64,000 nucleotides of DNA from Erysipelotrichales bacterium (lineage in GTDB: Bacteria > Bacillota_I > Bacilli_A > RFN20 > CAG-826). Made by a program: the position numbers and the translations under genes. Under the pieces are notes generated by a model. That model was not told the origin of the DNA, did not search any database, and worked only from the letters and a program-made list of their open reading frames with translations. The stretch lies in the NCBI GenBank assembly GCA_022508525.1, contig JAFLVA010000001.1, positions 90,879-154,878 on the forward strand. The letters run 5' to 3'. Below are positions 1 to 58,223 of this stretch, in pieces; positions within the stretch are counted from its first letter, which is position 1, and every line of letters begins with the position of its first letter.

Positions 1-35
1 TGAAGAAAGTATTATTAAAGAAAGGAAGAGAGAAG

Positions 36-1697
36 ATGTCGCATTTAATAACCTCACTTAAATCAGTGGCAATATATTGTCGTTTATCTAAAGATGATGG
101 ACTAGATGGCGACTCTTCTTCAATTCAATCACAAAGAAATCTTTTAACAAAGTATGCTGAAGATAATGAATGGCATATTTTTGATATTTATATAGATGAT
201 GGATATTCAGGCACGAACTTTAATCGCCCAGCATTTCAAAAAATGATTAAAGACATCGAACAAAATCGTATAGATATTGTAATAACTAAAGACTTATCAC
301 GTTTAGGAAGAAATTATATTCAAACAGGTTTTTATACAGATGATTATTTTCCAAATCATAATGTTCGATATATTGCTCTTTCAGACAATTTCGATACTCA
401 AAAGGAAGATGATCCAGCTTCTGATTTAGTGCCATTTAAAAACGTTATAAATGAGTGGTATGCTAGAGATACATCTAAAAAGATACGTTCAGTTTTTAAA
501 ATGAAAAATAAAGCAGGAATATTAATTAGAAGACCTGTCCCACTTTATGGTTATAAATATAATCATGAAAATAACACCGTTGAAATAGATGAAGAATCTG
601 CTTCAGTAATTAAATACTTATTTACTGCTTATGCTTCAAACACCCCTATTGCTATTATAAAAAAATATTTAATTGATAATAAGATTCATACTCCTGGATA
701 TTATGCATATCTTAAATATAACTATAACAAAGAAAGATATGGAGCATATTCAGAAGAACAAAAGTATACTTGGAAAAATTGTGTTATAGATAGAATGTTA
801 TCTAATATTGAATACACAGGCATTTACATTGCAAGTAAAACAGCAAGTATAAACTTTAAAAATCATCGAAGAAGAAAAGTAGATACAAAAGAATATACTT
901 TTGAAGGAATAAGACCTCAAATCATATCCAAAGAATTATTTAATAAAGTTGCAGAAAGAAAAGCAAAAACATATCGCCCAAGACTTCAAAGTGAAAATGA
1001 AGTAGTGCTTCAAGGTGTTTTAGAATGCGCAGAATGTGGCAGAAAACTTAATCATAAAAATCAAACATTATATAGAAAAGACCGTAATAAAATTTATCAT
1101 AATCATTATTTTGCTTGCCGCAGTAAAAATTGTTCATTAAAGGCATATGTTAAATATGATGATATAAATCAAATTGTAAAAAATACTTTGTCATCATTAA
1201 AGGAATTTCTTCTTAACAAAGAAGAAAAGTTTTTAGAATACGCTAAAAATTATAAACCTAAAATTAAAGTAGATGAAAAGAAAATAGATACTAAAAAGTT
1301 AATCAAAGATTTAAACATCCAAAAAGCAAAACTTGAGAATCAAATTACAAATTTATTTGAAGGACATGTTAATGGAAATATACCTACTGATTTATTTGAT
1401 AAGTTATCTAAAAAGTATACAGCAGAAGTAAATGATATCATTTTTAAAATTAAAGAATTGACTAAACCAAAAGAAAATAAAGAGACAAATATTAATTATT
1501 TTTTGCAAGCAAAAGAATTTGTTGATAATTTAAAAAAATACAATGAAGATATTTGTGATGAAGAAATAGTGCATTTATTAATCAATAAAATAATTATTGG
1601 AAAAGAATATTATGATAAAAGCACGAGATCAAGATCCAATTATAATGTATTAGTAAACATCCGATTTAACATAACTAACGAATTGTTGGAGTTCTAG
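36..1697 (+). CDS. Large serine recombinase (resolvase/invertase catalytic domain + recombinase domain + zinc ribbon + coiled coil)
   Basis: N-terminal VAIYCRLSKDDG...SSIQSQR catalytic-serine motif and ITKDLSRLGRN. Cys pairs CAECGRKL...FACRSKNC form a zinc ribbon. K/E-rich coiled-coil C-terminus. RBS ggaagagagaag upstream. Confidence 0.9.
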   Translation: MSHLITSLKSVAIYCRLSKDDGLDGDSSSIQSQRNLLTKYAEDNEWHIFDIYIDDGYSGTNFNRPAFQKMIKDIEQNRIDIVITKDLSRLGRNYIQTGFYTDDYFPNHNVRYIALSDNFDTQKEDDPASDLVPFKNVINEWYARDTSKKIRSVFKMKNKAGILIRRPVPLYGYKYNHENNTVEIDEESASVIKYLFTAYASNTPIAIIKKYLIDNKIHTPGYYAYLKYNYNKERYGAYSEEQKYTWKNCVIDRMLSNIEYTGIYIASKTASINFKNHRRRKVDTKEYTFEGIRPQIISKELFNKVAERKAKTYRPRLQSENEVVLQGVLECAECGRKLNHKNQTLYRKDRNKIYHNHYFACRSKNCSLKAYVKYDDINQIVKNTLSSLKEFLLNKEEKFLEYAKNYKPKIKVDEKKIDTKKLIKDLNIQKAKLENQITNLFEGHVNGNIPTDLFDKLSKKYTAEVNDIIFKIKELTKPKENKETNINYFLQAKEFVDNLKKYNEDICDEEIVHLLINKIIIGKEYYDKSTRSRSNYNVLVNIRFNITNELLEF

Positions 1698-1705
1698 TAC
1701 AACTA

Positions 1706-2782
1706 TTATTTCAATTTTGACTTGTAATAGTGTGTAATTCTATCTAATTCAGGGAATAAAGTTGCTTCGTTAATTCCAAACTTATCAAGTTCTTTTAAGA
1801 TTTCCTCTTGATTATGAATTTCTATTTTGCAATATACCATATCTTTAATTTTTGATTCGTTCGTTTTTTCATCTTTGCTTAATCCACTGATTATAAATGC
1901 GCCAGATTGACGCATAATTCTATTGTTAGTTAAATCTGGCTGAACAAAATAATTACGTAAAATATCAATGACATATAATTCTTTATCAAAATTTACTTCA
2001 CTTCTTATTTCATGATATAATTTTTCAACAATTGTTCCATTGTTTTTTTCGTTAAATTTAGCAGCAATATCCTTTGTTTTTTTGATTCTATTAATACATG
2101 CTTTGTAGAGCTCTTTTTGCTCGTATGCATTAAATTTTGATAAGCAAGATACTATAATCGATTTATCACTATCCTTGTATAATAAGTTTTGTTTTGGATT
2201 TAAAAAAACATATACATATCCAAAATTATTCGGATCTTTATTACCATTTGTAAAGTCTTTGCACGCGAAGTATAAAGCTACTAATGGATTAGAGGTGATA
2301 TCTAATAATCTAGTTGGGCATTCATAATGCTGTAAAGTAACAAGAGTATCTAGATGACTTTTATTATTAAAATTGTTTGGTGAGCGAGCAATTACATTAT
2401 GCAATAAATAACTTTCGTGCCCCAAATATGGTTTTCTATAAACTCCAGGTAATAGCGAATATGTATTACGAAAAACACCACGGTAGAATGTATCTGTTTG
2501 ATTTTCGTGCACGAATTTATCATCGTTTTTTGTATTATCTGATTTTAAATTATTAATTTGCTTTGATGAGAAAAGTGTATAAAACCGTATGTATTTATTT
2601 ATAGTTTCCTCTAATTCTTTATCATTTTTTGCGTTTTTAATTTTACCATCATATGCTTGTAATCGGATCATACAATTTATTAATTCGTTGTATCTTATTT
2701 TAGAATTCTCTGTTTGTATTTCTGAAATGGCTTTTATATATTCGGCAATGTTATTTGCAAAAAGTGTTTTTTGTTCAAACAT
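1706..2782 (-). CDS. FRG-domain protein (uncharacterised family)
   Basis: FYRGV motif, LQHYECPTRLLDITSNPLVALYFAC, C-terminal NNRIMRQSGAFII and ATLFPELD, all matching FRG-domain signatures. Convergent with the recombinase gene. Confidence 0.7.
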   Translation of the reverse strand: MFEQKTLFANNIAEYIKAISEIQTENSKIRYNELINCMIRLQAYDGKIKNAKNDKELEETINKYIRFYTLFSSKQINNLKSDNTKNDDKFVHENQTDTFYRGVFRNTYSLLPGVYRKPYLGHESYLLHNVIARSPNNFNNKSHLDTLVTLQHYECPTRLLDITSNPLVALYFACKDFTNGNKDPNNFGYVYVFLNPKQNLLYKDSDKSIIVSCLSKFNAYEQKELYKACINRIKKTKDIAAKFNEKNNGTIVEKLYHEIRSEVNFDKELYVIDILRNYFVQPDLTNNRIMRQSGAFIISGLSKDEKTNESKIKDMVYCKIEIHNQEEILKELDKFGINEATLFPELDRITHYYKSKLK

Positions 2783-2865
2783 AGTGCTATGCCCCCTTTA
2801 TTAAATATATTATATTATTTTTTTTTAGTTTTCATAGCGTTTACATTAAATTATTCCCCAAATTA

Positions 2866-3150
2866 TCTGCGACACCAGCAGGACTAAAAGCAATAAAAAG
2901 AATGAAGGAATTATCAAAAGAAGATGATAAAAGCACTGCGACGAATGAAATGGTTACATTTTTAGTTTTAAATACAGCGGGAGTTACAATATTACCTACA
3001 ACTGTTATGGCAATAAGGCAGAGTTATGGATCTACTAATCCAGCAGATTTCTTAATTCTTTCCTTTGTGGGTACGCTTGCATCGTGCATCTTTGGTCTTT
3101 TATTAGACAAGTATTATCAACGAAAGGCAGAAAGAAAACATGGCAAGTAA
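2866..3150 (+). pseudogene. spmA: 3' fragment of spore maturation protein A gene (spmA), 5'-truncated at the element junction
   Basis: In-frame codons from ~2866 read SATPAGLKAIKRMKEL...MVTFLVLNTAGVTILPTTVMAIRQSYGS...DKYYQRK. This resembles only the C-terminal half of B. subtilis SpmA. No N-terminal ~100 aa, no RBS at the ATG at 2902, and an 11-nt overlap with spmB as in intact operons. Confidence 0.7.
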
Positions 3151-3664
3151 AATATCTCTTATCTTCATACCTCTTTTAGTTTTATTTGCAATTGGGTATT
3201 CATACGCTAAAAAAAATAATGCATATTCTTCATTTATCAAAGGAGTAGAGGAAGGATTACCACTATTTAAAGATTTATTTCCAAGCGTTATTGCTATGCT
3301 TTTATGCGTTACATTACTTAAAAGTTGTGGAATCATTGACGATATTAAAAGTCTTATGATGAAATGGATTCCACAATCTGAGACGGTTATTGATTTAACT
3401 CCAATGATTTTATTTAGACCAATATCTGGTTCTGCTTCAGTTGCTTGCTTTGATGCAATATGTAAAACATTAGGACCAGATTCATTAACAGCAAAAATTG
3501 CAGCAACAATTCAAGGATCAACAGATACAACAATTTATATTCTCGCTCTTTATTTTGGATCAGTTGGAGTTACAAAATGGAAGCATGCATTAAAGACTGG
3601 CTTATTAACTGATATAGTTGGAATAATTGTAGGTATTGTTTTAGCACTAATATTTTTTAAATAA
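3140..3664 (+). CDS. spmB: Spore maturation protein B (nucleoside-recognition/Gate domain membrane protein)
   Basis: FIKGVEEGLPLFKDLFPSVIAML...LFRPISGSASVA...GPDS...QGSTDTTIYILALYFGSVGV resembles SpmB over its full length. Confidence 0.85.
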   Translation: MASKISLIFIPLLVLFAIGYSYAKKNNAYSSFIKGVEEGLPLFKDLFPSVIAMLLCVTLLKSCGIIDDIKSLMMKWIPQSETVIDLTPMILFRPISGSASVACFDAICKTLGPDSLTAKIAATIQGSTDTTIYILALYFGSVGVTKWKHALKTGLLTDIVGIIVGIVLALIFFK

Positions 3665-3702: not shown

Positions 3703-3858
3703 TATTCGATTCAGGGATAGGTGTAATTCCTTACCGGCGGTATACTCCGCGAGCCGAAAGGTTGAACTAGTGAAATTCTAGTAGCGACAGTTAAAGTCTG
3801 GATGAAAGAATTGTTTTTTTATTCTTTTGTATTTTTGTCCCTGAATAGGGACTTTTTT
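3703..3858 (+). promoter_or_regulatory. FMN riboswitch (RFN element) with candidate terminator expression platform
   Basis: Conserved RFN core: cagggataggtgtaattccttaccggcggt...ccgcgagcc...ggttgaactagtgaaattctagtagcgacagttaaagtctggatgaaaga. Downstream hairpin gtccc-tgaata-gggac plus T6 (3837-3858). tcaggga (3711-3717) is complementary to tccctga (3838-3844), giving an antiterminator option. Confidence 0.9.
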
Positions 3859-3874
3859 ATTGGAGGATAAATAT

Positions 3875-4489
3875 ATGAAGACTAAAGTGTTTACAGTAAG
3901 ATTTATGGCACGTGTGGCAATATTTAGCGCAATTGCAGCAATTTTGTATTGCGTCCCATTCTTAAAATTTAAATTGCCATTTTTCCTTAGTTTTTTAGAA
4001 ATACATTTTGATGAAATACCTGCATTTGTTGCCTCGTTTGCATACGGACCTCTTTGTGGCTCTTTGGTATTAGTTATTAAAACGTTAATAAAACTTCCGT
4101 TTACAAGTACAGCAACTGTTGGAGAGTGGTTAGACTTGCTCTATGGATTAGCTTTGATTTTACCAGCCTCTATCATATACAAAAAACATCGCACTTATAA
4201 AGGTGCGATAATTGGTATAATTGCCAGTATTTTTGCACAATTATTAGTGAGCTTCATTTGTGCTGGAACATTTGTAATTAATTTTTATGCAGCTTTATTT
4301 CATATTGAGCCAGAGAAAATACTTAAAATGGGACAAGCTCTAAATCCTAATGTTAAGAATATATATTTCTCAATGGCTTTCTATTGCTTCTTGCCTTTTA
4401 ATGCTTTCAAGGATGCTATTATTGCAATATTAACGATATTGCTCTATCCAAGAGTTAGATACTTTACAGAAAAAAGATATAAGAAATAA
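3875..4489 (+). CDS. ribU: Riboflavin transporter, ECF-type S component (RibU/FmnP-like)
   Basis: Six-TM small membrane protein directly downstream of the FMN riboswitch. RBS GGAGGA lies 7 nt before the ATG at 3875, so the track's TTG start at 3860 is unlikely. Confidence 0.8.
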   Translation: MKTKVFTVRFMARVAIFSAIAAILYCVPFLKFKLPFFLSFLEIHFDEIPAFVASFAYGPLCGSLVLVIKTLIKLPFTSTATVGEWLDLLYGLALILPASIIYKKHRTYKGAIIGIIASIFAQLLVSFICAGTFVINFYAALFHIEPEKILKMGQALNPNVKNIYFSMAFYCFLPFNAFKDAIIAILTILLYPRVRYFTEKRYKK

Positions 4490-4689: not shown

Positions 4690-4795
4690 GTTTATCTACT
4701 CCTTTATAGTATTAAAATTATAAATTAATATAAGAGTTTTTTCAAGATAAAAAGGGCTAGAAACTTTATAATTTCATATTATCCCTTTTAGATCT

Positions 4796-6334
4796 TTAAT
4801 ATGTTTCAATTTTTAATTTACATGTTAACTCTGTTGTATCTTCAATCGTTACAATATATTTAAAAAAACCTGCTGATTCTTTGAAATATTCATTAGTTTG
4901 GTGAGGAGTCATATCGCGATACTGTGAATTCCTTTGTAAATCAAATACATCACCTTTAATAAATAAATCGTCAGATGTTGCATGAAATGATGAGCCTGTT
5001 AAGCCATTATGACCAAACCTACAATCACGAGGAATTAACGTTGAAATAACTAGGTGCTGACCTTCATTAGTCATGAATCCTTCAATATTACCACGAGGTG
5101 TATTAGAAAATTTAACCCCGATCATCTTATCAATATCATCTTCAAATTCGTTATCAATATTTACAGCACGTGCATTAATATAGGTAATTCTTAATCCTGA
5201 TGTTTGATATCCTTTTTTAATTTCGCCGTTTTCCGATTTTTTATGACCTTCTAGATAATCTTTTTCATTCAAACCAGTTGGTGTAATATATTCCATCATG
5301 ATGTATTCATCAAAGGGAGTACCATTAAAATTATCGGTTTTAAAAATTAAGAAATCTCCAGTTTCTGTTGCGCTATTTAGGGTTATTTCACCAGAGGAAT
5401 CAATAATATATGGATCAGCCCAAGATAATGCAAATTTATTGTACATTGAATGATCACCTAAATCATCGTCCATCATATCAACTTTTCCCATTGGAGCAAC
5501 GTTACTATAGCCAGTGTCATAAAAATCTGTCAAACCTAGTAGATGACCTGTTTCATGAATATAAGTGTGTGCATCTATTGAGTCAAATCCATAACCTTGG
5601 TACATCATATCATACGATGCCCAAGAATAACGCATTGCAATTGGTGAATTAATATCACCTTTATTAATATTGCCTTCATGGTCGTAAGTATAAGCCCAGA
5701 AATACTCTGGTATAGATTCATTATTAGAATAATTTGGTGCACTATAGACAAGATAAATTGCATCAATAAAACCATCTTTATTTTGATCATAATCTAAGAT
5801 GTCATCATAAGTGTCCTTATACCAAGAAACTATTTCGTCTAAAAGAAAATATATCCCATTATCTTGAAAGATTTTATCTTCTTTAGCCTTTAACTCTTCT
5901 GGAGTTAGATCTAAATTAAACCAATCGGTAACTTTACCGGATAAATTTAATTTATTATAGCTAGATTTTTTGTAATAAGAACTAACTGATTCATAAGCTG
6001 TTTCTTCGCTTGTTCCAAAAAATGCTTTTTCTAAATCGTTTCTTATTTTTTCTGTAGCATTATTTTCATAACCTTTAATTGAAATAGGAACAACTAATAT
6101 TTTTTGATTGCCTATTGATGGTAATGTTGGTCGGCCATAATTATTAAATAAAGTAGCGTAGTTATTTTTTTCATTATGCGCTAATTTATTAAACACTTTT
6201 GAATCAGAATAACTTGTAGATGTGAAATCATTAGATACATTTGTAGATGGATTAGGAGATATAGAATTTTTCCCTGTTGAGCAGGAAAATAGGAAAGTAA
6301 TAGATAATAATAGCGGGAAAGTTTTTTTAGTCAT
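4796..6334 (-). CDS. Lipoprotein, M6 (immune inhibitor A-like) zinc metallopeptidase
   Basis: Lipobox LFSC-S. HETGHLLGLTDFYD (HExxH followed by a D.YD-type motif, as in InhA/M6). Last gene of the lipoprotein operon, overlapping the upstream gene by 8 nt. Confidence 0.7.
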   Translation of the reverse strand: MTKKTFPLLLSITFLFSCSTGKNSISPNPSTNVSNDFTSTSYSDSKVFNKLAHNEKNNYATLFNNYGRPTLPSIGNQKILVVPISIKGYENNATEKIRNDLEKAFFGTSEETAYESVSSYYKKSSYNKLNLSGKVTDWFNLDLTPEELKAKEDKIFQDNGIYFLLDEIVSWYKDTYDDILDYDQNKDGFIDAIYLVYSAPNYSNNESIPEYFWAYTYDHEGNINKGDINSPIAMRYSWASYDMMYQGYGFDSIDAHTYIHETGHLLGLTDFYDTGYSNVAPMGKVDMMDDDLGDHSMYNKFALSWADPYIIDSSGEITLNSATETGDFLIFKTDNFNGTPFDEYIMMEYITPTGLNEKDYLEGHKKSENGEIKKGYQTSGLRITYINARAVNIDNEFEDDIDKMIGVKFSNTPRGNIEGFMTNEGQHLVISTLIPRDCRFGHNGLTGSSFHATSDDLFIKGDVFDLQRNSQYRDMTPHQTNEYFKESAGFFKYIVTIEDTTELTCKLKIETY

Positions 6335-7805
6335 TTATTATTACATCTCCATTCTTGCAGTGCACTATATTGATTGAGCTTCCTAAATTCCAACTTATAA
6401 GATTTTCACCAATTATTTCTTCTTTTTCTATTGAATGCCATTGATCCATTGTGCCTGAATAATATATTTCTTCAAGTGATGATGTCATTCTAAATGTATA
6501 AGCTCCTATAAAAGTAATACTAGCTGGTAAAGTTAGCTTCTCTAATCTCAAAACATAAGAAAAAGCTTCACGATCAATTATTTCAACTCCATCACTTACC
6601 TCGTATTCAAATTGTTCATGACGAGCAGGATAAGAAATAAGGCGTGTTTTGTCTTTACTATATAAAACATTATTTTCTACAACAAAATTAGGATTATCTT
6701 TATGCATGCTTATTGTTTCTAAATAACGATCATAAGCAACTAAAGAAGTACCAATTTCTTCAAGTGTAGATGGCAAATATATACTTTCTAATATTTCGCA
6801 ATATGAAAATGCTCCATTGCCGAGAGTGGTAACTCCTTCAGGTATTGTTACACTTTTTAATCTTGGATTACGTATAAATGCATTATCTTTAATTACTCTT
6901 AGGGATGTTGGTAAAACATATTCGTTTGTAGAATTATCAACAAAGGCACCATCTTCAATGACTTCTACACCATTTTCAAGAACAACTCTTTTCAAATGAA
7001 AATTATTTACTACAGCACTTGCGTGTATTACCTTGATATTGCCGGGAATGATTAATTCATCTAAGGAAGAACAGTTACTAATGACATAAGATGATAATTC
7101 GCGCATTCCTTTTCCTAAGGTAATAGATTTAATTGACGAAAGATTAAAAGCATATTCTCCAATACATTCAACCGAATCTGGAATAGTAATAGTAGTTATT
7201 TTTTTAGTAGAAGCAAAAACTCTCTCGCCAATTTCTTTTAGATTTTTACTAAGAATAATTTCTTTGGCATTACTTGCTATAAAAGCATAATCGGCTAATT
7301 TAGTAATTTCGTCATCCAAATGCACAACATCTTTTTTTGGTGGACAGAAAATAAGTTCGTTGCCTAATTTGTTTAAAAGCAGACCATCTTTGCTTTTAAA
7401 ATAAGGATTTTCTGGTTCAACTTCAATATTTTCGATAGTTAAACAATTAGCAAAAGAAATTCCTTTGCATATTGCTATATTTTTTGATAAAACAATAGTT
7501 TTAATGCCACCACTAGATGCAAAAGCATAGTCTAGAATGCCAGTAATTAGTTTGCCATTAAAAGATTCTGGAATAGTTACTTTATTAGGCCTATAGTTTT
7601 TATAATTTTTAATAAATAATGTTCCATCTTCATTTTCGACAAATTCGAAATCATAGATATTAGTAGTTTCTTCTTGCGTTGGAGTAGATGTTGGTGTTTT
7701 AGAGGTTTCTTGACTGCTTATAGAACTTTCACTACTTGTAGAATTGTTTTCTGCACATGAAAACAAAACTAGAGGTAGTAGAAAAATCAATAATTTCTTC
7801 CTCAT
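6327..7805 (-). CDS. Lipoprotein with BspA-type leucine-rich repeats (LRR_5-like)
   Basis: Lipobox LFSC-A, S/T-rich tether, then ~15 repeats of about 23 aa with the pattern I.IP..V..IG..AF..C..L..I. Confidence 0.7.
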   Translation of the reverse strand: MRKKLLIFLLPLVLFSCAENNSTSSESSISSQETSKTPTSTPTQEETTNIYDFEFVENEDGTLFIKNYKNYRPNKVTIPESFNGKLITGILDYAFASSGGIKTIVLSKNIAICKGISFANCLTIENIEVEPENPYFKSKDGLLLNKLGNELIFCPPKKDVVHLDDEITKLADYAFIASNAKEIILSKNLKEIGERVFASTKKITTITIPDSVECIGEYAFNLSSIKSITLGKGMRELSSYVISNCSSLDELIIPGNIKVIHASAVVNNFHLKRVVLENGVEVIEDGAFVDNSTNEYVLPTSLRVIKDNAFIRNPRLKSVTIPEGVTTLGNGAFSYCEILESIYLPSTLEEIGTSLVAYDRYLETISMHKDNPNFVVENNVLYSKDKTRLISYPARHEQFEYEVSDGVEIIDREAFSYVLRLEKLTLPASITFIGAYTFRMTSSLEEIYYSGTMDQWHSIEKEEIIGENLISWNLGSSINIVHCKNGDVIIND

Positions 7806-7809
7806 AAAA

Positions 7810-9192
7810 TTACTCCAAAGTTATACCAAAAGGCAAAATAGTTGTGTTTAAATCTGAGAAAGTCGCAACAACTTTACCAGAACTACTTGTAAATCCGTTA
7901 TTAAAATTAAATCCGATTTCAATTCTATCTAAAAGGCCGCTCTTTAAAAAGATTTCACAGCCAGTTCCGTATCCATCAAGTTCACGTATTACATCTGGAG
8001 ATGGAATGAAACACTCTGCACCAATATAAGTTTTAAGTTCTTCAACCACTTTATAAGATTCGGAATTTGCATCATAATTGAAGATTTCCGGAGCAACTTC
8101 ACTCACTATTGGAATAAAGATATTTTTATCTGCACCATCAAGAGAAGAGAAACCATTTTGCATGGCAGTTTGATAACTCCATGAAGAGTCAGCTTCATTA
8201 TATCCCAAAGGAGTAACTGTCTCTTGATCATCATTAATTACTAGCAATACATCACTTAAAGCGCTTGGAGTTATACCGTCACCCCATTGGCCATATATGG
8301 CATCTTCTGTATAAAAATATTTACTGACAATTGGCTCAGTGGAACCATCGAATTCAAACGAAAGAGTTAATGTGTAATTATTCTTAATTGACTTAAATGC
8401 CTCTCCTAATGCATCATGCTCTGTTTTATGAACTTTTGGTGTTGGTTTTGTGATTGTTGTATTTCCCATATTTGACAATGTTAAAGTAGCAGTGGCATCT
8501 AATAAGAAATAAACATTTTCATAATTAATAGTTTCATATGTTTCTATAGTTGTAGGTTTTAATGTAATTGATTTAATCTCGCCATTTTCTATTATTGCAG
8601 TAGCAGATTCAATAACGCTATAGAATATAGGATCAATATCTCCAAATAATTGACTTGCCAAATAAGAGGCCTTTTTTAAATTTAAAGAATATTCACCATC
8701 TTCTATTTTTGTAAAGTCTTTCTCATTTAAATAATAGAAAGGATTATCGAAATATGATCCATAATTTACTTTAAATCCGGCGCTATCAGTAGCAAGAATC
8801 TTTTCAATTTCATTTTTATAATTTAATTCTAGAAAATACAAATATCCATCATCGCCTTCAGCATAAATATCATTGGTATGTACATAACTTGAGCCATCGG
8901 CTTCATAACCTGTTACTAAACGTTCAATACCAGTCATTTCTTTGTTTTCATATTTAAAAACATAATCGAATTGTGTTTCAGTAATATCTCCATTTAAAAC
9001 TCCACCTAAAATAGAAGAAGCAGTGAGAAATCTTGCTTTTTCGTTAATTGTGCCAGAAATAGTAACACCATCATTAAATTTTTCTAAGGCTTTTTGAATT
9101 TCTGATTTTGTACTATTTGTTCCGCCGTTTCCACAACTTGACAAAGCTATTAATGTTGCAGAACATAAAACGATTAAAAAAGTTTTTTTCAT
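7810..9192 (-). CDS. Lipoprotein of unknown function with an internally duplicated domain
   Basis: Lipobox LSSC-G. Both halves end in a similar strand motif (TLTLSNMGNTTI and ATFSDLNTTIL). Confidence 0.6.
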   Translation of the reverse strand: MKKTFLIVLCSATLIALSSCGNGGTNSTKSEIQKALEKFNDGVTISGTINEKARFLTASSILGGVLNGDITETQFDYVFKYENKEMTGIERLVTGYEADGSSYVHTNDIYAEGDDGYLYFLELNYKNEIEKILATDSAGFKVNYGSYFDNPFYYLNEKDFTKIEDGEYSLNLKKASYLASQLFGDIDPIFYSVIESATAIIENGEIKSITLKPTTIETYETINYENVYFLLDATATLTLSNMGNTTITKPTPKVHKTEHDALGEAFKSIKNNYTLTLSFEFDGSTEPIVSKYFYTEDAIYGQWGDGITPSALSDVLLVINDDQETVTPLGYNEADSSWSYQTAMQNGFSSLDGADKNIFIPIVSEVAPEIFNYDANSESYKVVEELKTYIGAECFIPSPDVIRELDGYGTGCEIFLKSGLLDRIEIGFNFNNGFTSSSGKVVATFSDLNTTILPFGITLE

Positions 9193-9208
9193 AATTATGC
9201 TCCATCCA

Positions 9209-10624
9209 TTAGATTAAACTATTGTAAAAGTCATCAAGGAATTCCAAACCAAAAGTTGAATTTCCGAATTGAGTTAACGTAAATGATATAGTTTCATCAA
9301 TAAATTCTAAAGTTTCCATGTTATATACATACCCAGTGATGTTTATTATGGAAAATTCTTCATTAAGTTCTATTTCTGCAGCACCAATAAATTTACCTTC
9401 TTCAAGTAAAGCACTATCAAAATTATTACTGTAATTCATTAAATTAATCATAGATTCAAGTGAACCATCAGAAATTAGTTTGCCTTCCATTTCCATAAAT
9501 GTTTCGTCAATTAGAGCTGATGGGAATACACCAGTAATTTCGGATAACGATGAAATAGAATAGTTTCTATCTCCTAGTTCAGGAGTTGATGAAGTGAGAT
9601 TAAAATCATATATTCCTGCTCCACGATCATCGTTTGCAGGGAGTTTAATAAATCCTTCGCTAGTAAATCCATCAACTACAAAGTTTTCAGTTACGATTCT
9701 GTAAAATTTTTCAACAGATGGATCAGTTATAACGTAGTTTTGTAAATCTAACAATGCTTTTATTTTGTCTTTAAGACTTAATTGTTCATTTCCGCCATCT
9801 TCTAAAGCACCATTACCATCTTCTAAGTAGGTGGTTATTTCATCAATTGCAGTTGTTCCAATATCACTAACAGTCAGGCGTGTTAGTGATCCCCAAGAGT
9901 CTTTGAATTCTATTACTAAACCTGTCTTGTTCTCTGACAAACTAATGTGGCTAGAAGCATTGTTATCATACATATAACTTTGGGCCATCATTTCATCTAG
10001 CAGAGGAAGTACAGCTTGAATGTCGATATCAAACATTTTAGAGTTGTCCTCATTAGCAGTAAGTTCGCTAAAATTATCAGCATCTACGAGATTAAATGAA
10101 TGAGCTAAGTAGACTAAATCTCCCCAATTGTCTTCAATTTGTGTTGTGTATAGACCATGAAGTTTTTCACCCTCATCATTTTCTAAATATGCTGTAGTAG
10201 GGACTGCCACTTCATCTTCGATTGTATAACCGAAAATACCCTCATCATTTTCCGCATATGCAATCTCTTCATCTCCCATATAAGGGACTGTATGAATGGT
10301 ATAGAATGCATTTGGAAGAATTTTTGTCACAAAGGTTTCTTCATCCGCTAATGATTCAACAACTATTGTATAATTGTTATCTTCAATTAGTGTTTCAATC
10401 ATTTTTTGAATTAGTACATCATCTTCAATAGGTTCAGGAGTTGTTGAATCTGAGGTTGCTCCTGAAAATGCTGAATCTGAAGAAGTTGCATCAGATGTCG
10501 GCTGTGATGTTTCACTGGTTGATACGCTTGGCATAGAGGACTCTTCACTAGTGGAAGGGTCATTTTTGTTACATGCGACTAATGCTAAACTACAAATAGC
10601 TAAAATTAAAAGTTTTTTGTTCAT
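9209..10624 (-). CDS. Lipoprotein of unknown function, paralogue of 7810-9192
   Basis: Start reassigned to MNKKLLILAICSLALVAC-N (RBS AAAAGGAG). A promoter lies inside the track's 47-aa N-terminal extension. Long S/T/E-rich tether. Motifs TRLTVSDIGTTAI and SFTLTQFGNSTF parallel the neighbouring gene. Confidence 0.6.
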   Translation of the reverse strand: MNKKLLILAICSLALVACNKNDPSTSEESSMPSVSTSETSQPTSDATSSDSAFSGATSDSTTPEPIEDDVLIQKMIETLIEDNNYTIVVESLADEETFVTKILPNAFYTIHTVPYMGDEEIAYAENDEGIFGYTIEDEVAVPTTAYLENDEGEKLHGLYTTQIEDNWGDLVYLAHSFNLVDADNFSELTANEDNSKMFDIDIQAVLPLLDEMMAQSYMYDNNASSHISLSENKTGLVIEFKDSWGSLTRLTVSDIGTTAIDEITTYLEDGNGALEDGGNEQLSLKDKIKALLDLQNYVITDPSVEKFYRIVTENFVVDGFTSEGFIKLPANDDRGAGIYDFNLTSSTPELGDRNYSISSLSEITGVFPSALIDETFMEMEGKLISDGSLESMINLMNYSNNFDSALLEEGKFIGAAEIELNEEFSIINITGYVYNMETLEFIDETISFTLTQFGNSTFGLEFLDDFYNSLI

Positions 10625-10670
10625 AATTATTTCTCCTTTTCTCTTAAAAACTTTATATATAATTTTTAAA

Positions 10671-10699
10671 ATTATACTAGTTTTAAATAGTAAAGGCAA
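10671..10699 (-). promoter_or_regulatory. Sigma-A-type promoter of the lipoprotein operon
   Basis: On the minus strand: TTGCCT (10699-10694), 17-nt spacer, TATAAT (10676-10671). About 40 nt upstream of the ATG at 10624. Confidence 0.55.
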
Positions 10700-10885
10700 C
10701 ATTTTTATTAATGACTGACTTATATAAACAGCTAATGAAATATTTTTAATGAAGAAATAACGCATAAAATGATGCCTTTATATTAATGGAAAATATTTCC
10801 GAATAAAAAAAATTTATATTTTTCAATTTAAACTATCTTTTTTATTTTAATTTTATTAAAATATTGTAGGAACGGAGGAAGGTAT

Positions 10886-13199: not shown

Positions 13200-13240
13200 C
13201 ATTTTATGAATCACTGCATATGATAATTTGGGTGATTATC

Positions 13241-13477
13241 ATGGATGATTCAATATTTGATAAGGTTGAAAAGAAAACAAATGTCAAAAAGAATGATATT
13301 CTTAAATTGGCCAAATCTTTATCTGGCAAAGATTTAAATGATGAAAAAGTTTTGCGATCCTTAATTAAGGATGTGGCTAAACTTGCAAATAAGCCAGTCT
13401 CTAAGGAAAAAGAAGAAAAAATTATTAATGCAGTTAAAAAAGACAAAATTCCAAAGAATCTAAATAAAATAATTTGA
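13241..13477 (+). CDS. spoVIF: Small sporulation protein resembling SpoVIF (YjcC family)
   Basis: MDDSIFDKVEKKTNVKKNDILKLAKSL...EKVLRSLIKDVAKLANKPVSKEKEEKII resembles my recollection of B. subtilis SpoVIF. RBS GGGTGA precedes the ATG at 13241. Confidence 0.5.
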   Translation: MDDSIFDKVEKKTNVKKNDILKLAKSLSGKDLNDEKVLRSLIKDVAKLANKPVSKEKEEKIINAVKKDKIPKNLNKII

Positions 13478-13568: not shown

Positions 13569-15047
13569 ATGGAAACTCAATCCGTGCTAAAAGATATTGG
13601 TTTAAGAAATAATGGTGACATTTATTTGGGTGTTGTTGGTCCTGTGCGCGTTGGAAAATCAACATTTATTAAAAGATTTATGGAAGTGTTGGTAATCCCT
13701 CGAATTATCAATGAAGATGAGAAAAAAAGAGCAATGGATGAACTTCCACAATCGGGAACCGGAAAGACAATTATGACAATGGAACCAAAATTTGTTCCTG
13801 CAAATGCAGCGGAGATTTTGGTTGAAGATAATTTGAGTGTGAAAGTTAGACTCATCGATTGTGTTGGTTATGTTATTGAAAGCGCACAAGGGTATTTAGA
13901 AGATGGCAATATGCGTCTTGTTAAAACACCATGGTTTAGTGAGACTATACCTTTTGATGACGCCGCAAAAATTGGAACACAAAAAGTAATTAAAGAACAT
14001 TCGACATTAGGAGTTTGTGTTTTAAGTGATGGAACAATTAATGAATTTAATCGCGCTGACTATATTTCTGCAGAGGAACAAGTTATTGAGGAATTAAATG
14101 CAATTAATAGGCCATATGTTATTGTTTTAAATAGTAAGACACCTACTGCAGATTCAACACTAAAAACCAAAGAAGAACTAGAAAGCAAATATAATGTTCC
14201 TGTTATTCCTTTAAATGTCGAAGAAATGAGTGAAAGAGATGCCACTAATATATTAAAAGAAGCATTATATCAATATCCAATTTCAAATATCGATGTGGCA
14301 TTGCCTTCTTGGGTTAGTGTTCTTGATGAAGAACATTATCTCAAAATTAGTATTAAGACTACTATTGAAGAGGCAATGAATACAGCAAAAACAATTCGTG
14401 ATGTGAATTCAATTAGTGAGATCATTAAACAGAATGAATATGTTTCTAATGCTACATTAGCAAATGTAGATACTGGAAGTGGCGTAGTTACTTTACAAAT
14501 GGATGTAAAAGATGGGCTATATGAAGTGATTTTAAAAGAATTAGTGGGCTGTGAAATATCTGATAAGGCACAATTGATTGCAGTATTAACAGATTTTGTA
14601 AAAGCTAAAAAGGATTATGAACTTCTAGGCACAGCTTTAAAAACAGCAGAAGCTACGGGATATGGATTTTCAAGCGCTAGTCTTGACAATATGAAAATAG
14701 AAAAACCTACTGCAACAAAATCTTCTAATAGATATGGCGTAAAAGTCAAAGCGACGGCGTCGACATATCACATTATTAAAGTAGATTTAGAAACATCGTT
14801 TGAACCAACACTTGGATCAAAAATGCAAAGTGATTATTTCCTAGACTATTTGTTAAAAGCTTACGAAGAAGATCCTAAAAAGATTTTAGATTGCGAGATC
14901 TTTGGACAGAAGTTTGGCGATATAATTAAGGCTGGCATAACTGGCAAACTTGCAACATTACCAGAACCTGTAAAGATTAAATTACAGCAATTAGTAAAGA
15001 CTATTTCTAATAAAGGAAAAACAAATTTAATAGCATTCGTATTTTAG
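13569..15047 (+). CDS. spoIVA: Stage IV sporulation protein A (spore coat basement-layer ATPase)
   Basis: 492 aa, with IYLGVVGPVRVGKSTFIKRFME Walker A and full-length SpoIVA-like sequence. Adjacent to hbs, as in Bacillus. Confidence 0.92.
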   Translation: METQSVLKDIGLRNNGDIYLGVVGPVRVGKSTFIKRFMEVLVIPRIINEDEKKRAMDELPQSGTGKTIMTMEPKFVPANAAEILVEDNLSVKVRLIDCVGYVIESAQGYLEDGNMRLVKTPWFSETIPFDDAAKIGTQKVIKEHSTLGVCVLSDGTINEFNRADYISAEEQVIEELNAINRPYVIVLNSKTPTADSTLKTKEELESKYNVPVIPLNVEEMSERDATNILKEALYQYPISNIDVALPSWVSVLDEEHYLKISIKTTIEEAMNTAKTIRDVNSISEIIKQNEYVSNATLANVDTGSGVVTLQMDVKDGLYEVILKELVGCEISDKAQLIAVLTDFVKAKKDYELLGTALKTAEATGYGFSSASLDNMKIEKPTATKSSNRYGVKVKATASTYHIIKVDLETSFEPTLGSKMQSDYFLDYLLKAYEEDPKKILDCEIFGQKFGDIIKAGITGKLATLPEPVKIKLQQLVKTISNKGKTNLIAFVF

Positions 15048-22918: not shown

Positions 22919-23263
22919 ATTTCGACCTGGATAATTGCTGATGTATTTACATTAGAGGAAAGTCCATGCTCGCACCAGCTGAGATGCTGGTAGTGATTGT
23001 GCTAGATGAAACAATAAATCTAGGTATATGGGAGCATATAACGGCAATTCGATAACCTAAGTCGCGAGATATGGTTTAGAATTTGAAAGTGCCATAGTGA
23101 CGATTTTTATGGGAAACCATAATAGTGGAACGCGGTAAACCCCACAAGCGAGAAACCCAAATTTGGTAGGGGAAGTTTAGAAGAAGAATTCAATTTTTCT
23201 AGGCATGCTTAACGCATAGATAAATAATTATCCTTGACAGAACATGGCTTATAGGGTCGAAAT
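22919..23263 (+). ncRNA. rnpB: RNase P RNA (bacterial type B, compact, about 345 nt)
   Basis: P1 pairing atttcgacc / ggtcgaaat. Universally conserved GAGGAAAGTCCATGCTCGCAC and ACAGAACATGGCTTA blocks, plus AGTGCCATAGTGACG. Confidence 0.9.
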
Positions 23264-55942: not shown

Positions 55943-56029
55943 TGGTGCCCGGGACCGGAATCGAACCGGTACGGTATCGCTACCGCAGGATTTTAAGTCC
56001 TGTGCGTCTACCTATTCCGCCACCTGGGC
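55943..56029 (-). tRNA. tRNA-Leu (anticodon UAA), CCA encoded
   Basis: Own fold: GCCCAGG acceptor, anticodon loop CTTAAAA, long variable arm, TTCGATT T-loop, ...GCACCA 3' end. Confidence 0.9.
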
Positions 56030-56036
56030 ATCAAGA

Positions 56037-56112
56037 TGGTGACTCGCCGGAGATTCGAACTCCGGACCCCTTGATTAAAAGTCAAGTGCTCTACCGTCTG
56101 AGCTAGCGAGTC
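56037..56112 (-). tRNA. tRNA-Lys (anticodon UUU), CCA encoded
   Basis: GACTCGC TA GCTC AGACGGTA GAGC, anticodon loop CTTTTAA, TTCGAAT T-loop. Confidence 0.92.
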
Positions 56113-56113
56113 A

Positions 56114-56189
56114 TGGCTGGGGTAACTGGGATCGAACCAGTGAAATGACAGAGTCAAAGTCTGTTGCCTTACCGCTTGGCTATACCCCA
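56114..56189 (-). tRNA. tRNA-Gln (anticodon UUG), CCA encoded
   Basis: TGGGGTA TA GCCA AGCGGTAA GGCA, anticodon loop CTTTGAC, TTCGATC T-loop. Confidence 0.9.
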
Positions 56190-56196
56190 ATAAGGA

Positions 56197-56280
56197 TGGT
56201 GGAGGAAGGTGGATTTGAACCACCGAACCCTAAGGAACTGATTTACAGTCAGCCGCGTTTGGCCGCTTCGCTATTCCTCC
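56197..56280 (-). tRNA. tRNA-Tyr (anticodon GUA), CCA encoded
   Basis: GGAGGAA acceptor, anticodon loop CTGTAAA, long variable arm, TTCAAAT T-loop. Confidence 0.9.
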
Positions 56281-56295
56281 ACGTTACATATATAA

Positions 56296-56371
56296 TGGTG
56301 GATGTTGAGGGGATCGAACCCACGACCTCTACCTTGTAAGGGTAATGCTCTCCCAGCTGAGCTAAACATCC
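56296..56371 (-). tRNA. tRNA-Val (anticodon UAC), CCA encoded
   Basis: GGATGTT TA GCTC AGCTGGGA GAGC, anticodon loop CTTACAA, TTCGATC T-loop. Confidence 0.92.
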
Positions 56372-56561: not shown

Positions 56562-58223
56562 TTAATAACCTTTCTTTCCTAATAGGTGGAACATATTTCT
56601 CTTATATATCTCAACACCAGGTTGATTGAATGGATTTATATCTAGTAAATATGCAGACATTGCGCAAGCACGCATAAAGAAATAGAAGAGGCCGCCGAGA
56701 TGATATGCATCCATTTTATCAACAGATATAACGATATTTGGAACTTTTCCATCTTCAACGTGGGCTTTAATTGTGCCTTGCATTGCTTTCTCGTTAATAA
56801 AGGATAAGGTTTTTCCTTCCAAATAATTTAATCCGTCAAGATCAGCATCATCATGAGGAACTTCAATATCAAGAGATGGATTTTCAACTTTAACAATAGT
56901 TTCAAACAATATATGAGATCCATCTTGAATAAATTGACCAAGTGAATGTAAATCAGTTGAGAAAGTTACAGATCCAGGTAATAGACCTTTGCCTTCTTTT
57001 CCTTCTGATTCACCAAATAATTGTTTTAACCATTCACTGATGTGAGAAAGTGATGGTTCATAAGTAACAAATAATTCAACGGATTTATTATGGTGATAGA
57101 AGTAATCACGGATTATTGCATATTTATAACAATCATTATTCATAATATCATCATTATCATATTTGATCATTGCATCATATGCACCACGAATCATTTCTTT
57201 AATATCTAATCCAGCACATGCAATAGGGAATAAACCAACAGCAGTTAAGACAGAGTATCTACCACCGATGTCATCAGGCAATACAAATGTTTCGTAACCT
57301 TCAGTATTACATAATGTTTTTAGTGCACCACGTTCTTTATCTGTAGTAGCAAAAATAGATTTTCTTGCTTCGTCTTTTCCAACTTGTTTTTCAAGTAAAT
57401 CTTTAACTAGTCTAAATGCAATTGATGTTTCTGTTGTTGTACCGGATTTTGAAATGACATTTATAGCAAATTTTTTCTCTTTTAAATAGTTCATAACTTG
57501 TGCAATGTATAATGGTGAGAATGTTTGTCCTAAATATATAATTTCAAGCTTATCATCACTGTATAATCCTCTTAATGCATCAATAGCAGCTTTTGCTCCT
57601 AGATAGGATCCTCCGATACCACAGACAACAAGAATGTCATAGTTATCGCGCACATATTTCGCGCATTTTACCATTCTTTCTAATTCTTCTTTGTCATAGT
57701 CTTTTGGCCATGTTGTCCATCCAAGAAAATCATTTCCTGCTCCTGATTTGTTATTTATCATGTCATTGATTTGTTTGGCACGGTAGCAATAACTTTCAAA
57801 ATTAATGTTTTCAATTATGTTTGTAAAATCTGTTTTAATCATATTTTGTTCCTCCAAAGATTTGTTAATCCAATTGTCTAAATTTAATCTTAATTTTTCA
57901 AAATCATGTTCGCTATTTAAAACACGCACTCTTTTTGGTTTGTTAAATATTAATGGCTTTTTTATTTTTTGTCGTTCGCGATCATTTAAAGCTTTTAGTG
58001 AAAGTTTTAAATAATTGTTTTTATCTTCAATGCCAAGTACTTTTACGCGAACTTGGTCTCCGACTTTAACATAATCTTCTATATTCTTGACAAATTTTGC
58101 TGAAATTTCTGAAATATGAATTAAGCCGATTTGACCATTTTCAAAACTTACAAATGCACCATAGTTTTGAATACCTGTAACTTTTCCAATTACAATATCA
58201 TTTTCTTTATATAACTCTGTCAT
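56562..58223 (-). CDS. pgi: In-frame fusion ORF: S1 RNA-binding domain protein (YugI/GSP13-like, aa 1-127) + glucose-6-phosphate isomerase (aa 128-553)
   Basis: S1: GKVTGIQNYGAFVSFENGQIGLIHISE. Pgi: GAGNDFLGWTTWP, GIGGSYLG, SKSGTTTE, GGRYS, QLFGESEGK, NPFNQPGVE. There is no stop between the two parts. An internal GGAGG-N8-ATG sits at 57842. Confidence 0.85.
   Translation of the reverse strand: MTELYKENDIVIGKVTGIQNYGAFVSFENGQIGLIHISEISAKFVKNIEDYVKVGDQVRVKVLGIEDKNNYLKLSLKALNDRERQKIKKPLIFNKPKRVRVLNSEHDFEKLRLNLDNWINKSLEEQNMIKTDFTNIIENINFESYCYRAKQINDMINNKSGAGNDFLGWTTWPKDYDKEELERMVKCAKYVRDNYDILVVCGIGGSYLGAKAAIDALRGLYSDDKLEIIYLGQTFSPLYIAQVMNYLKEKKFAINVISKSGTTTETSIAFRLVKDLLEKQVGKDEARKSIFATTDKERGALKTLCNTEGYETFVLPDDIGGRYSVLTAVGLFPIACAGLDIKEMIRGAYDAMIKYDNDDIMNNDCYKYAIIRDYFYHHNKSVELFVTYEPSLSHISEWLKQLFGESEGKEGKGLLPGSVTFSTDLHSLGQFIQDGSHILFETIVKVENPSLDIEVPHDDADLDGLNYLEGKTLSFINEKAMQGTIKAHVEDGKVPNIVISVDKMDAYHLGGLFYFFMRACAMSAYLLDINPFNQPGVEIYKRNMFHLLGKKGY

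Follow-up and report, generated by a model that had tools for sequence, protein, structure and literature searches.

In this work, we have analysed a window of 64,000 nucleotides (about 30% G+C) from an Erysipelotrichales bacterium (assembly GCA_022508525.1, contig JAFLVA010000001.1, positions 90,879 to 154,878), at whose left edge the spore maturation gene spmA is interrupted. From position 1 onwards the window holds the end of a small conserved open reading frame (ORF), a gene for a large serine recombinase (LSR), a convergent cargo gene with an FRG domain, a short non-coding stretch, the 3΄ portion of spmA and an intact spmB (Table 1). A first-pass annotation made from the letters alone had described the 553-aa LSR and the FRG gene upstream of the spmA fragment, with about 80 bp of AT-rich non-coding DNA before the fragment, and had proposed that the element runs past the window start. 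This layout was recovered, the non-coding stretch coming to about 90 nt, and the small ORF that precedes the related LSR genes is cut by position 1, so that its last 19 codons remain. The LSR gene lies 1.2 kb from the spmA junction, and the visible part of the element, its right end only, amounts to 2.9 kb. Judged from the comparisons set out below, positions 1–2876 belong to a non-phage integrative element and make up its right end, the left end lying outside the window.

Table 1. Features at the right end of the element and in the interrupted operon (window coordinates)
Feature	Position	Strand	Evidence or remark
Small conserved ORF, C-terminal part (last 19 codons and stop)	2..61	+	Frame-2 translation EESIIKERKREDVAFNNLT followed by a stop; cut by window start
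Large serine recombinase, 553 aa, apparently intact	36..1697	+	Pfam domains, invariant motif residues, relatives adjoining spmA 3΄ halves
FRG-domain cargo gene, 358 aa, convergent to the LSR gene	1706..2782	-	Pfam FRG 3.3e-17; PADLOC PDC-S15 4.6e-68
AT-rich non-coding stretch, ~90 nt	2783-2874		
attR site	2846..2900	none	Junction alignments, arm mirror comparison, start of homology to intact spmA
spmA 3΄ portion, codons about 104-197, stop 3148-3150	2869..3150	+	Homology to full-length SpmA
spmB, intact, 174 aa, overlaps spmA stop	3140..3664	+	Weak Pfam Gate match; collinear with spmB in all relatives

The homology to SpmA opens at ...SATPAGLKAIKRMKEL, and its start is as abrupt as first described (at about position 2866). 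With a full-length relative as the query, tblastn aligned SpmA residues 103–119 at positions 2863–2913, and the same type of search found the first ~105 codons of spmA nowhere in the 64-kb window, in agreement with the ~100 codons reported as lacking. In blastn comparisons, similarity to the window begins at 2869, corresponding to nt 313 of the intact spmA, in seven loci, and at 2867 in an eighth (L009), while positions 1–2866 matched none of the compared loci with an intact spmA. From a start at 2863–2869 the homology then runs to the stop at 3150 and overlaps the intact spmB, as the first-pass annotation had it. The fragment has neither a start codon nor a ribosome-binding site of its own, and it is parted from the dacB-spmA promoter region. 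The proteins homologous to the fragment are full-length SpmA (172–197 aa), one of them named 'spore maturation protein A' by JGI, with identities from 89% down to 47%; Pfam and NCBIfam gave no significant match for the 102-aa fragment.

Comparison with uninterrupted relatives, which had been suggested as a check, was informative. When species-representative genomes were scanned with a full-length SpmA query, spmA was uninterrupted in 11 of the 11 loci found, which belong to uncultured Erysipelotrichales and Bacilli and to a few Clostridia, and the gene order was dacB-spmA-spmB in the relatives whose gene lists were inspected. The closest intact locus, that of Erysipelotrichales bacterium HAN092 (L004), shares ~86% nucleotide identity. 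Against its SpmA, the 3΄ half in the window shows two amino-acid differences in 93 residues (85% nucleotide identity, dN/dS 0.018), and spmB gives a dN/dS of 0.048; the 3΄ half has no stops and no frameshifts. By these measures the split gene is under strong purifying selection and is not decaying, a pattern that fits a recent insertion and continued use after excision alike and separates neither. Since the window encodes an intact SpoIVA (13569–15047, 63% identical to that of a relative), the host belongs to an endospore-forming lineage. It had also been proposed that a short spmA ORF shared with relatives without any element would speak against an interruption. The lone apparent case, an 83-aa 'short SpmA' ORF (P0001) in the scaffold L001, proved to be an artefact of a 10-N scaffold gap in an otherwise intact spmA. 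This gap (9939–9948) lies ~30–45 nt upstream of the attachment core in a metagenome scaffold of a related species; it could be an assembly-graph break, with occupied and empty sites coexisting in that sample.

Homologues of the LSR were drawn from the protein database and their contigs then read. In L016, L017, L018/L019 and L020/L021, LSRs 55–59% identical to that of the window lie upstream of an spmA 3΄ half, in the same orientation, and the break in spmA falls at the same codon. The element in L017 is complete: the spmA 5΄ half (residues 1–108) occupies positions 6608–6931 and the 3΄ half (residues 106–195) positions 13202–13465, and ACACCCGCGG is found at both junctions as a direct 10-bp repeat. 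In-silico deletion of the 6,279 bp between the repeats gives a 194-aa SpmA, in frame and collinear with the intact orthologues through ...GLGFAATPAGLKAMK... Our analysis of this relative shows that precise removal from junction to junction would rebuild an in-frame spmA. The idea that spmA is split by a discrete, LSR-carrying element therefore held, with a complete element found between both halves of the gene in L017, its removal restoring the gene, and the closest relatives intact.

The left junction was seen from the other side, by a search with the N-terminal half of SpmA, which recovered 33 protein clusters. Sixteen of the 19 inspected are proteins of 110–129 aa that end 2–10 residues after ...GFAATP, and they share few types of tail, for example VGE, AGE and AEATN, each followed by a stop, and GGATFRETK...; att-truncated forms make up about half of the N-terminal SpmA clusters found for this host group. 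The three loci inspected in context read gidAB-parAB-dacB-spmA5΄-foreign genes in L065, dacB-spmA5΄-two small genes-hsdR in L066, and spmA5΄ followed by HAD, AraC and glycoside hydrolase genes in L069. Two 3΄-half proteins start with element-derived residues (MPPPAGLK... and ...FIPPPSGLK...). The contig of L015, with an LSR 83% identical to ours, is 11 kb long and ends before any junction. The breakpoint is not a matter of chance, because four other LSR-linked 3΄ halves share it, as do 16 or more clusters of 5΄ halves. As far as comparison of sequences can, these loci show that this LSR clade integrates at one site of spmA, the Pro106 codon, in the conserved GLGFAATPAGLK coding stretch. They also bear on the explanation that there is no functional element at all, spmA being a pseudogene formed by deletion or rearrangement, or the junction an assembly chimera. 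The missing 5΄ half in the window would suit that explanation, but the same codon is broken beside a related, intact LSR in independent assemblies from different samples, the complete element is bounded on either side by the 10-bp repeat, the attP arms mirror each other (see below) and the 3΄ half is open throughout, and we regard it as very improbable.

Three further observations concern the extent of this group. A sister LSR clade, ~50% identical (L022/L023), does not adjoin spmA. Both L022 (10001–15153) and L023 have the same small upstream ORF, the cargo further downstream counts an AAA_21 ATPase and an ADP-ribosyltransferase-like protein among its products, and the sister-clade element ends beside a 74-aa fragment of an NMT1-family gene; these elements probably target a gene other than spmA. 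When the LSR-clade alignment was run against JGI metagenome contigs and IMG/VR, the best full-length matches reached at most 39% identity and none adjoined spmA; two short partial matches at 52–56% identity were obtained in the same scans. In L069 (6039–15336; GCA_054282015.1, JAZPWY010000059.1) the genes after the truncated spmA 5΄ half encode a HAD hydrolase, an AraC regulator, a pair of family-2 glycoside hydrolases and an EamA transporter, and no recombinase gene is encountered over 9 kb. This locus represents a large element that carries metabolic genes or else a rearrangement of greater complexity.

The position of the crossover was approached by aligning the junctions of five attR, four attL and five attB sites. 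In the window, the element-derived arm of attR covers about 2846–2874, with TCCCCAAATTA at 2855–2865, and the host-derived arm starts at 2877. The attR sites of L016, L018 and L020 have non-host bases through the first base of the Thr105 codon (CCG/CCA CCA CC against the host GCN ACN CC), and the attL sites of L066 and L069, as well as several tails common to divergent hosts, have a foreign codon 107 (GTG or GGC in place of GCN). A foreign first base of Thr105 in attR and a foreign codon 107 in attL place the exchange inside C-A-C-C-N-G, at window positions 2873–2878, and it is to this interval that the flank alignment proposed in the first-pass annotation narrowed the crossover. The element arms, moreover, mirror each other about CC. 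The left arm of L016, gtcctggcgaaatgttgcaccgccaCC, matches the reverse complement of the right arm of L069, gtctcgcaaaatgttgcaccgccaGG (a strong match), and the left arm of the window, ttccccaaattatctgcgacaCC, resembles the reverse complement of the right arm of L066, atccccaatttactctcccacaGG, with a shift of 1 nt (a fair match); both matches are between different elements, and the sole within-element pair, that of L017, forms a weak palindrome (about 8 of 20 positions). The mirroring of the arms about CC would place the crossover dinucleotide at 2875–2876. The crossover is thus most likely the CC at these positions, the first two bases of the Pro106 codon, with spmA broken at codon 105/106. 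Exact-pattern searches of IMG/VR with the circular attP junctions gave no match.

The LSR shows the expected domains in Pfam, namely Resolvase (PF00239, 7.7e-24, residues 11–161), Recombinase (PF07508, 8.8e-12, residues 186–311) and Zn_ribbon_recom (PF13408, 5.1e-07, residues 325–385), the PF07508 and PF13408 matches being above the Pfam cut-offs, and residues R16, S18, R89 and R92 are invariant in the alignment of the eight-member clade. Its best full-length NCBIfam matches are CcrB (9.1e-24), CcrC (1.5e-22) and XisF (2.1e-19); since the scores are far below the cut-offs (84 against 900 bits for CcrB, 70 against 375 for XisF), the window LSR falls outside these families. Among solved structures, the closest catalytic domain is that of TnpX from Tn4451 (E 1.1e-32, residues 10–121), and SprA of SPbeta matches with an E of 1.3e-09. 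A second 553-aa ORF of the window (56562–58223, minus strand), considered as a possible second recombinase, is unrelated to the LSR.

What do these elements carry? The FRG protein of the window matches the PADLOC profile PDLC04936 (PDC-S15) over residues 75–357, and, as the PDC families of PADLOC are candidate defence systems, it is a candidate single-gene anti-phage defence system of that family. The cargo of both L016 and L017 includes AAA_14/DUF4143 proteins that match PDC-S01 at about 1e-165, together with a weak HamA-like match in L016 and an HNH protein in L017; L020 carries Rep_trans and a UvrD-type helicase, and L015 and L066 carry hsdM/hsdS with a tyrosine recombinase, SymE, and hsdR. 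Each related element has different genes between the LSR gene and attR. Because the nucleotide similarity between the window and L015 (~82%) ends exactly at the LSR stop codon, the stretch from the LSR gene to attR behaves as an exchangeable cargo slot. The element in L015 (494–5487) appears to carry a type I restriction-modification system, and the two opposed hsdS genes beside its tyrosine recombinase point to a specificity switch that is phase-variable. The hsdR gene (L066, 2001–4838) adjoins the spmA 5΄ half on a separate contig of the sample that gave L015; no terminal overlap was found between the two contigs, and we only infer that they belong to a single element.

The first-pass annotation had likened the element to the prophage-like insertions of other spore formers, and this part of it did not stand. 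Neither the complete 6.3-kb relative nor the partial ones have phage structural, packaging or lysis genes, the only PHROG matches are an HTH regulator and a family of unknown function for the FRG protein (phrog_4962, 3.4e-35), and the LSR catalytic domain is nearest to TnpX, not to SpoIVCA or SprA. The nearest phage integrases, among 50,697 phage records, are at most 34% identical over most of the protein, and IMG/VR holds no LSR relative above 38% identity. It could be argued that the insertion represents a prophage or, in the manner of skin or SPbeta, a degraded one, with the remainder upstream of the window, given that only 2.9 kb of it is visible and that the FRG protein has its PHROG match. 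Besides the weak similarity to phage recombinases, a complete relative of 6.3 kb free of structural and lysis genes, and relatives whose genes encode restriction-modification, defence candidates, an HTH regulator, an HNH protein and Rep_trans, argue otherwise and make such an origin improbable.

In every related element examined, an ORF of 41–58 aa precedes and overlaps the LSR gene, with the consensus M.KIIDGKKYEI.I.F...N.SLFD.IM.EIE...; the remnant in the window aligns with the C-terminus of the small ORF of L015 (...EENIFKERKEEDVTINNIT and a stop). The product belongs to no Pfam or PHROG family. Since its position copies the rdf-int-attR layout reported for the recombination units of SPbeta and phi3T (PMC6957869), it is a candidate for a directionality or accessory factor in recombination. 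The small directionality-factor gene that the first-pass annotation had suggested looking for thus has a possible counterpart in a conserved ORF at the start of the LSR gene, and its role in directionality stays that of a candidate. A motif of the CATATATT type is conserved 11–33 nt upstream of the small ORF in the relatives, in a region that falls outside the window. It reads CATATATT or CATAGAAT, preceded by AC(C/T)TTT, and lies at ~6464 in L015, ~2298 in L016, ~9857 in L017, ~2542 in L018 and ~5506 in L020. We take it to resemble the -10 element of the mother-cell sigma factors (sigmaE/sigmaK). A sigmaE/sigmaK promoter assignment was rejected, as there is only a CATAnnnT-like motif, the pattern is frequent and no consistent -35 element accompanies it; the motif and the order of small ORF and LSR gene count as hints of developmental control, the motif as a weak one.

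Integration parts spmA codons 1–105 and the upstream operon from codons 106–197 and spmB. We propose that at the left end of the window's element spmA codons 1–105 would be found, oriented as the 3΄ portion is, then an arm similar to GGGAGAGTAAATTGGGGA, and dacB upstream. The LSR would catalyse excision, probably assisted by the product of the small ORF that precedes its gene, and the rejoined attB would read ...GCAACACC joined to NGCNGGA... Excision in the mother cell would restore dacB-spmA-spmB, and the spore would keep the element, as with skin, SPbeta and gin. In B. subtilis the dacB-spmAB operon is controlled by sigmaE in the mother cell (PMC517825), and mother-cell genes are the targets of nearly all intervening elements known (PMC6957869). 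Because of this control, of this precedent and of the fact that about half of the N-terminal SpmA clusters found for this host group carry the insertion, excision in the mother cell during sporulation is the interpretation we favour, with a confidence that is evenly divided for and against. More tentative, and somewhat short of an even chance, is the fuller proposal that these are small, non-viral elements, widespread in uncultured gut spore-formers, that carry defence genes, and that mother-cell-specific excision from spmA keeps them in the germ line, the LSR and the 41–58 aa directionality factor together switching on spore maturation.

The main competitor of this proposal is that spmA serves simply as the att site of an ordinary integrative or mobilizable element, or of a defence island, which excises rarely and at any time, for transfer, so that spmA stays disrupted and spmB promoter-less. 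We consider it possible rather than probable. It draws on the LSR catalytic domain, closest to TnpX of Tn4451, on the Rep_trans and UvrD-type helicase of L020, which are typical of mobilizable elements, on a cargo that is defence-like and not related to sporulation, and on the intact spmA of all 11 species-representative loci found. In addition, the LSRs are often more alike than the SpmB proteins of their hosts, which points to movement between lineages. On the other hand, the interruption of about half of the N-terminal SpmA clusters implies that carriage costs little, the split spmA and spmB are under strong purifying selection, and there is the precedent of other mother-cell genes as targets (PMC6957869). 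Furthermore, the insertion severs spmB as well from the operon promoter. For the integrated state, a promoter scan found no sigma-70-like promoter on the plus strand of window positions 2783–2875 to drive spmA΄-spmB; overall, the scan gave fewer sites than in shuffled sequence.

Several points weigh against our proposal and have to be set beside the arguments for it. The nearest catalytic domain is that of TnpX, which is not known to require a directionality factor for excision and integration or to be developmentally controlled, and B. subtilis spmA mutants still sporulate, so a permanent knockout might be tolerated. The identity between LSRs often exceeds that between the SpmB proteins of the hosts (69% against 47% for L016 and L018), which indicates horizontal spread of the elements rather than long vertical residence. 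The window covers the right end only of its own element, the left end being outside it, and the arms of L017 show the weak symmetry mentioned above. Finally, on each strand of DNA this rich in AT there are about two occurrences of CATAnnnT per kb, which makes the motif weak evidence for a promoter.

Other parts of the window complete the picture of the host genome. Downstream of spmB, an FMN riboswitch (3703–3817, 98.9 bits) and a terminator-like hairpin (3837–3852) precede the gene for an ECF-transporter S component (3860–4489), probably a riboflavin transporter. A 6-kb block at 4754–10802, comprising four genes on the minus strand (512, 492, 460 and 518 aa), is missing in L004, where its flanks are 26 bp apart; one product is a BspA-type leucine-rich-repeat protein and that of the first gene has a lipoprotein-like N-terminus and an HETGH motif, so that the block looks like a second strain-variable island, coding for surface proteins. 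A class B RNase P RNA lies at 22923–23256, and five tRNA genes (Leu, Lys, Gln, Tyr, Val) are clustered on the minus strand at 55943–56371. With spoIVA, these RNA genes help to place the host among the spore-forming Bacillota.

Described targets of intervening elements, in the literature searched, are sigK, spsM, spoVFB, spoVR, gerE, kamA, yabG and spoVK. In the first-pass annotation spmA was not known to have been described as a target, and it is not among these eight; nor were spmA or spmB linked to an intervening element, an integrase or a serine recombinase in the full-text literature searched, which covered few subscription papers. If our proposal is correct, spmA, and with it the dacB-spmAB operon for the cortex and core dehydration, would join the short list of genes split by excisable elements, the phenomenon would reach beyond Bacillus and Clostridium to uncultured gut Erysipelotrichales-like bacteria, and a programmed DNA rearrangement would switch on spore maturation in them. 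Annotation pipelines would score such genomes as lacking spmA or as carrying a pseudogene, which would bias the prediction of sporulation from metagenome-assembled genomes. Candidate anti-phage defence genes accumulate in the variable slot that separates the recombinase gene from attR, and a new LSR clade with a known attB and a partly reconstructed attP is raw material for genome-engineering tools.

How do the spmA elements compare with known systems? As occurs with skin (SpoIVCA) in sigK, SPbeta (SprA-SprB) in spsM and phi3T in kamA (PMC4191935, PMC6957869), the LSR gene lies at one end of the element, a gene that is expressed in the mother cell in B. subtilis is split, and precise excision would restore its reading frame. 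With SPbeta and phi3T they also share a recombination unit in the order small gene-int-attR. In contrast, those three are prophages or their remnants, of 48–135 kb, whereas the spmA element of L017 has 6,279 bp, and the spmA elements differ from them further in that a slot with variable cargo follows the recombinase gene and precedes attR.

The closest analogue is gin, in gerE of Bacillus cereus ATCC 10987, with its GirC integrase and GirX directionality factor (PMC5595907). Like gin, the spmA element is a small non-prophage insertion in the coding region of a sporulation gene, with its own serine recombinase, whose excision would rebuild the gene. The small protein of gin is a directionality factor and the small ORF described here a candidate for one; the target is spmA and not gerE, the hosts are uncultured gut Erysipelotrichales-like Bacilli, and the cargo is variable and defence-like. 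Sporulation-specific excision has been shown experimentally for gin, whereas the spmA elements are known here from their sequences. TnpX of the Clostridium perfringens/difficile elements Tn4451/Tn4453, compared with our LSR over the N-terminal domain only, offers the nearest catalytic domain and likewise belongs to a non-phage element, which excises as a circle. Tn4451 inserts at many GA-containing sites and not in one gene, and TnpX is not known to need a directionality factor. XisF, which with CcrB and CcrC of SCCmec is among the best full-length NCBIfam matches of the LSR, acts on the fdxN element of Anabaena, where developmental excision rebuilds a gene in a terminally differentiated cell, as we propose for spmA in the mother cell.

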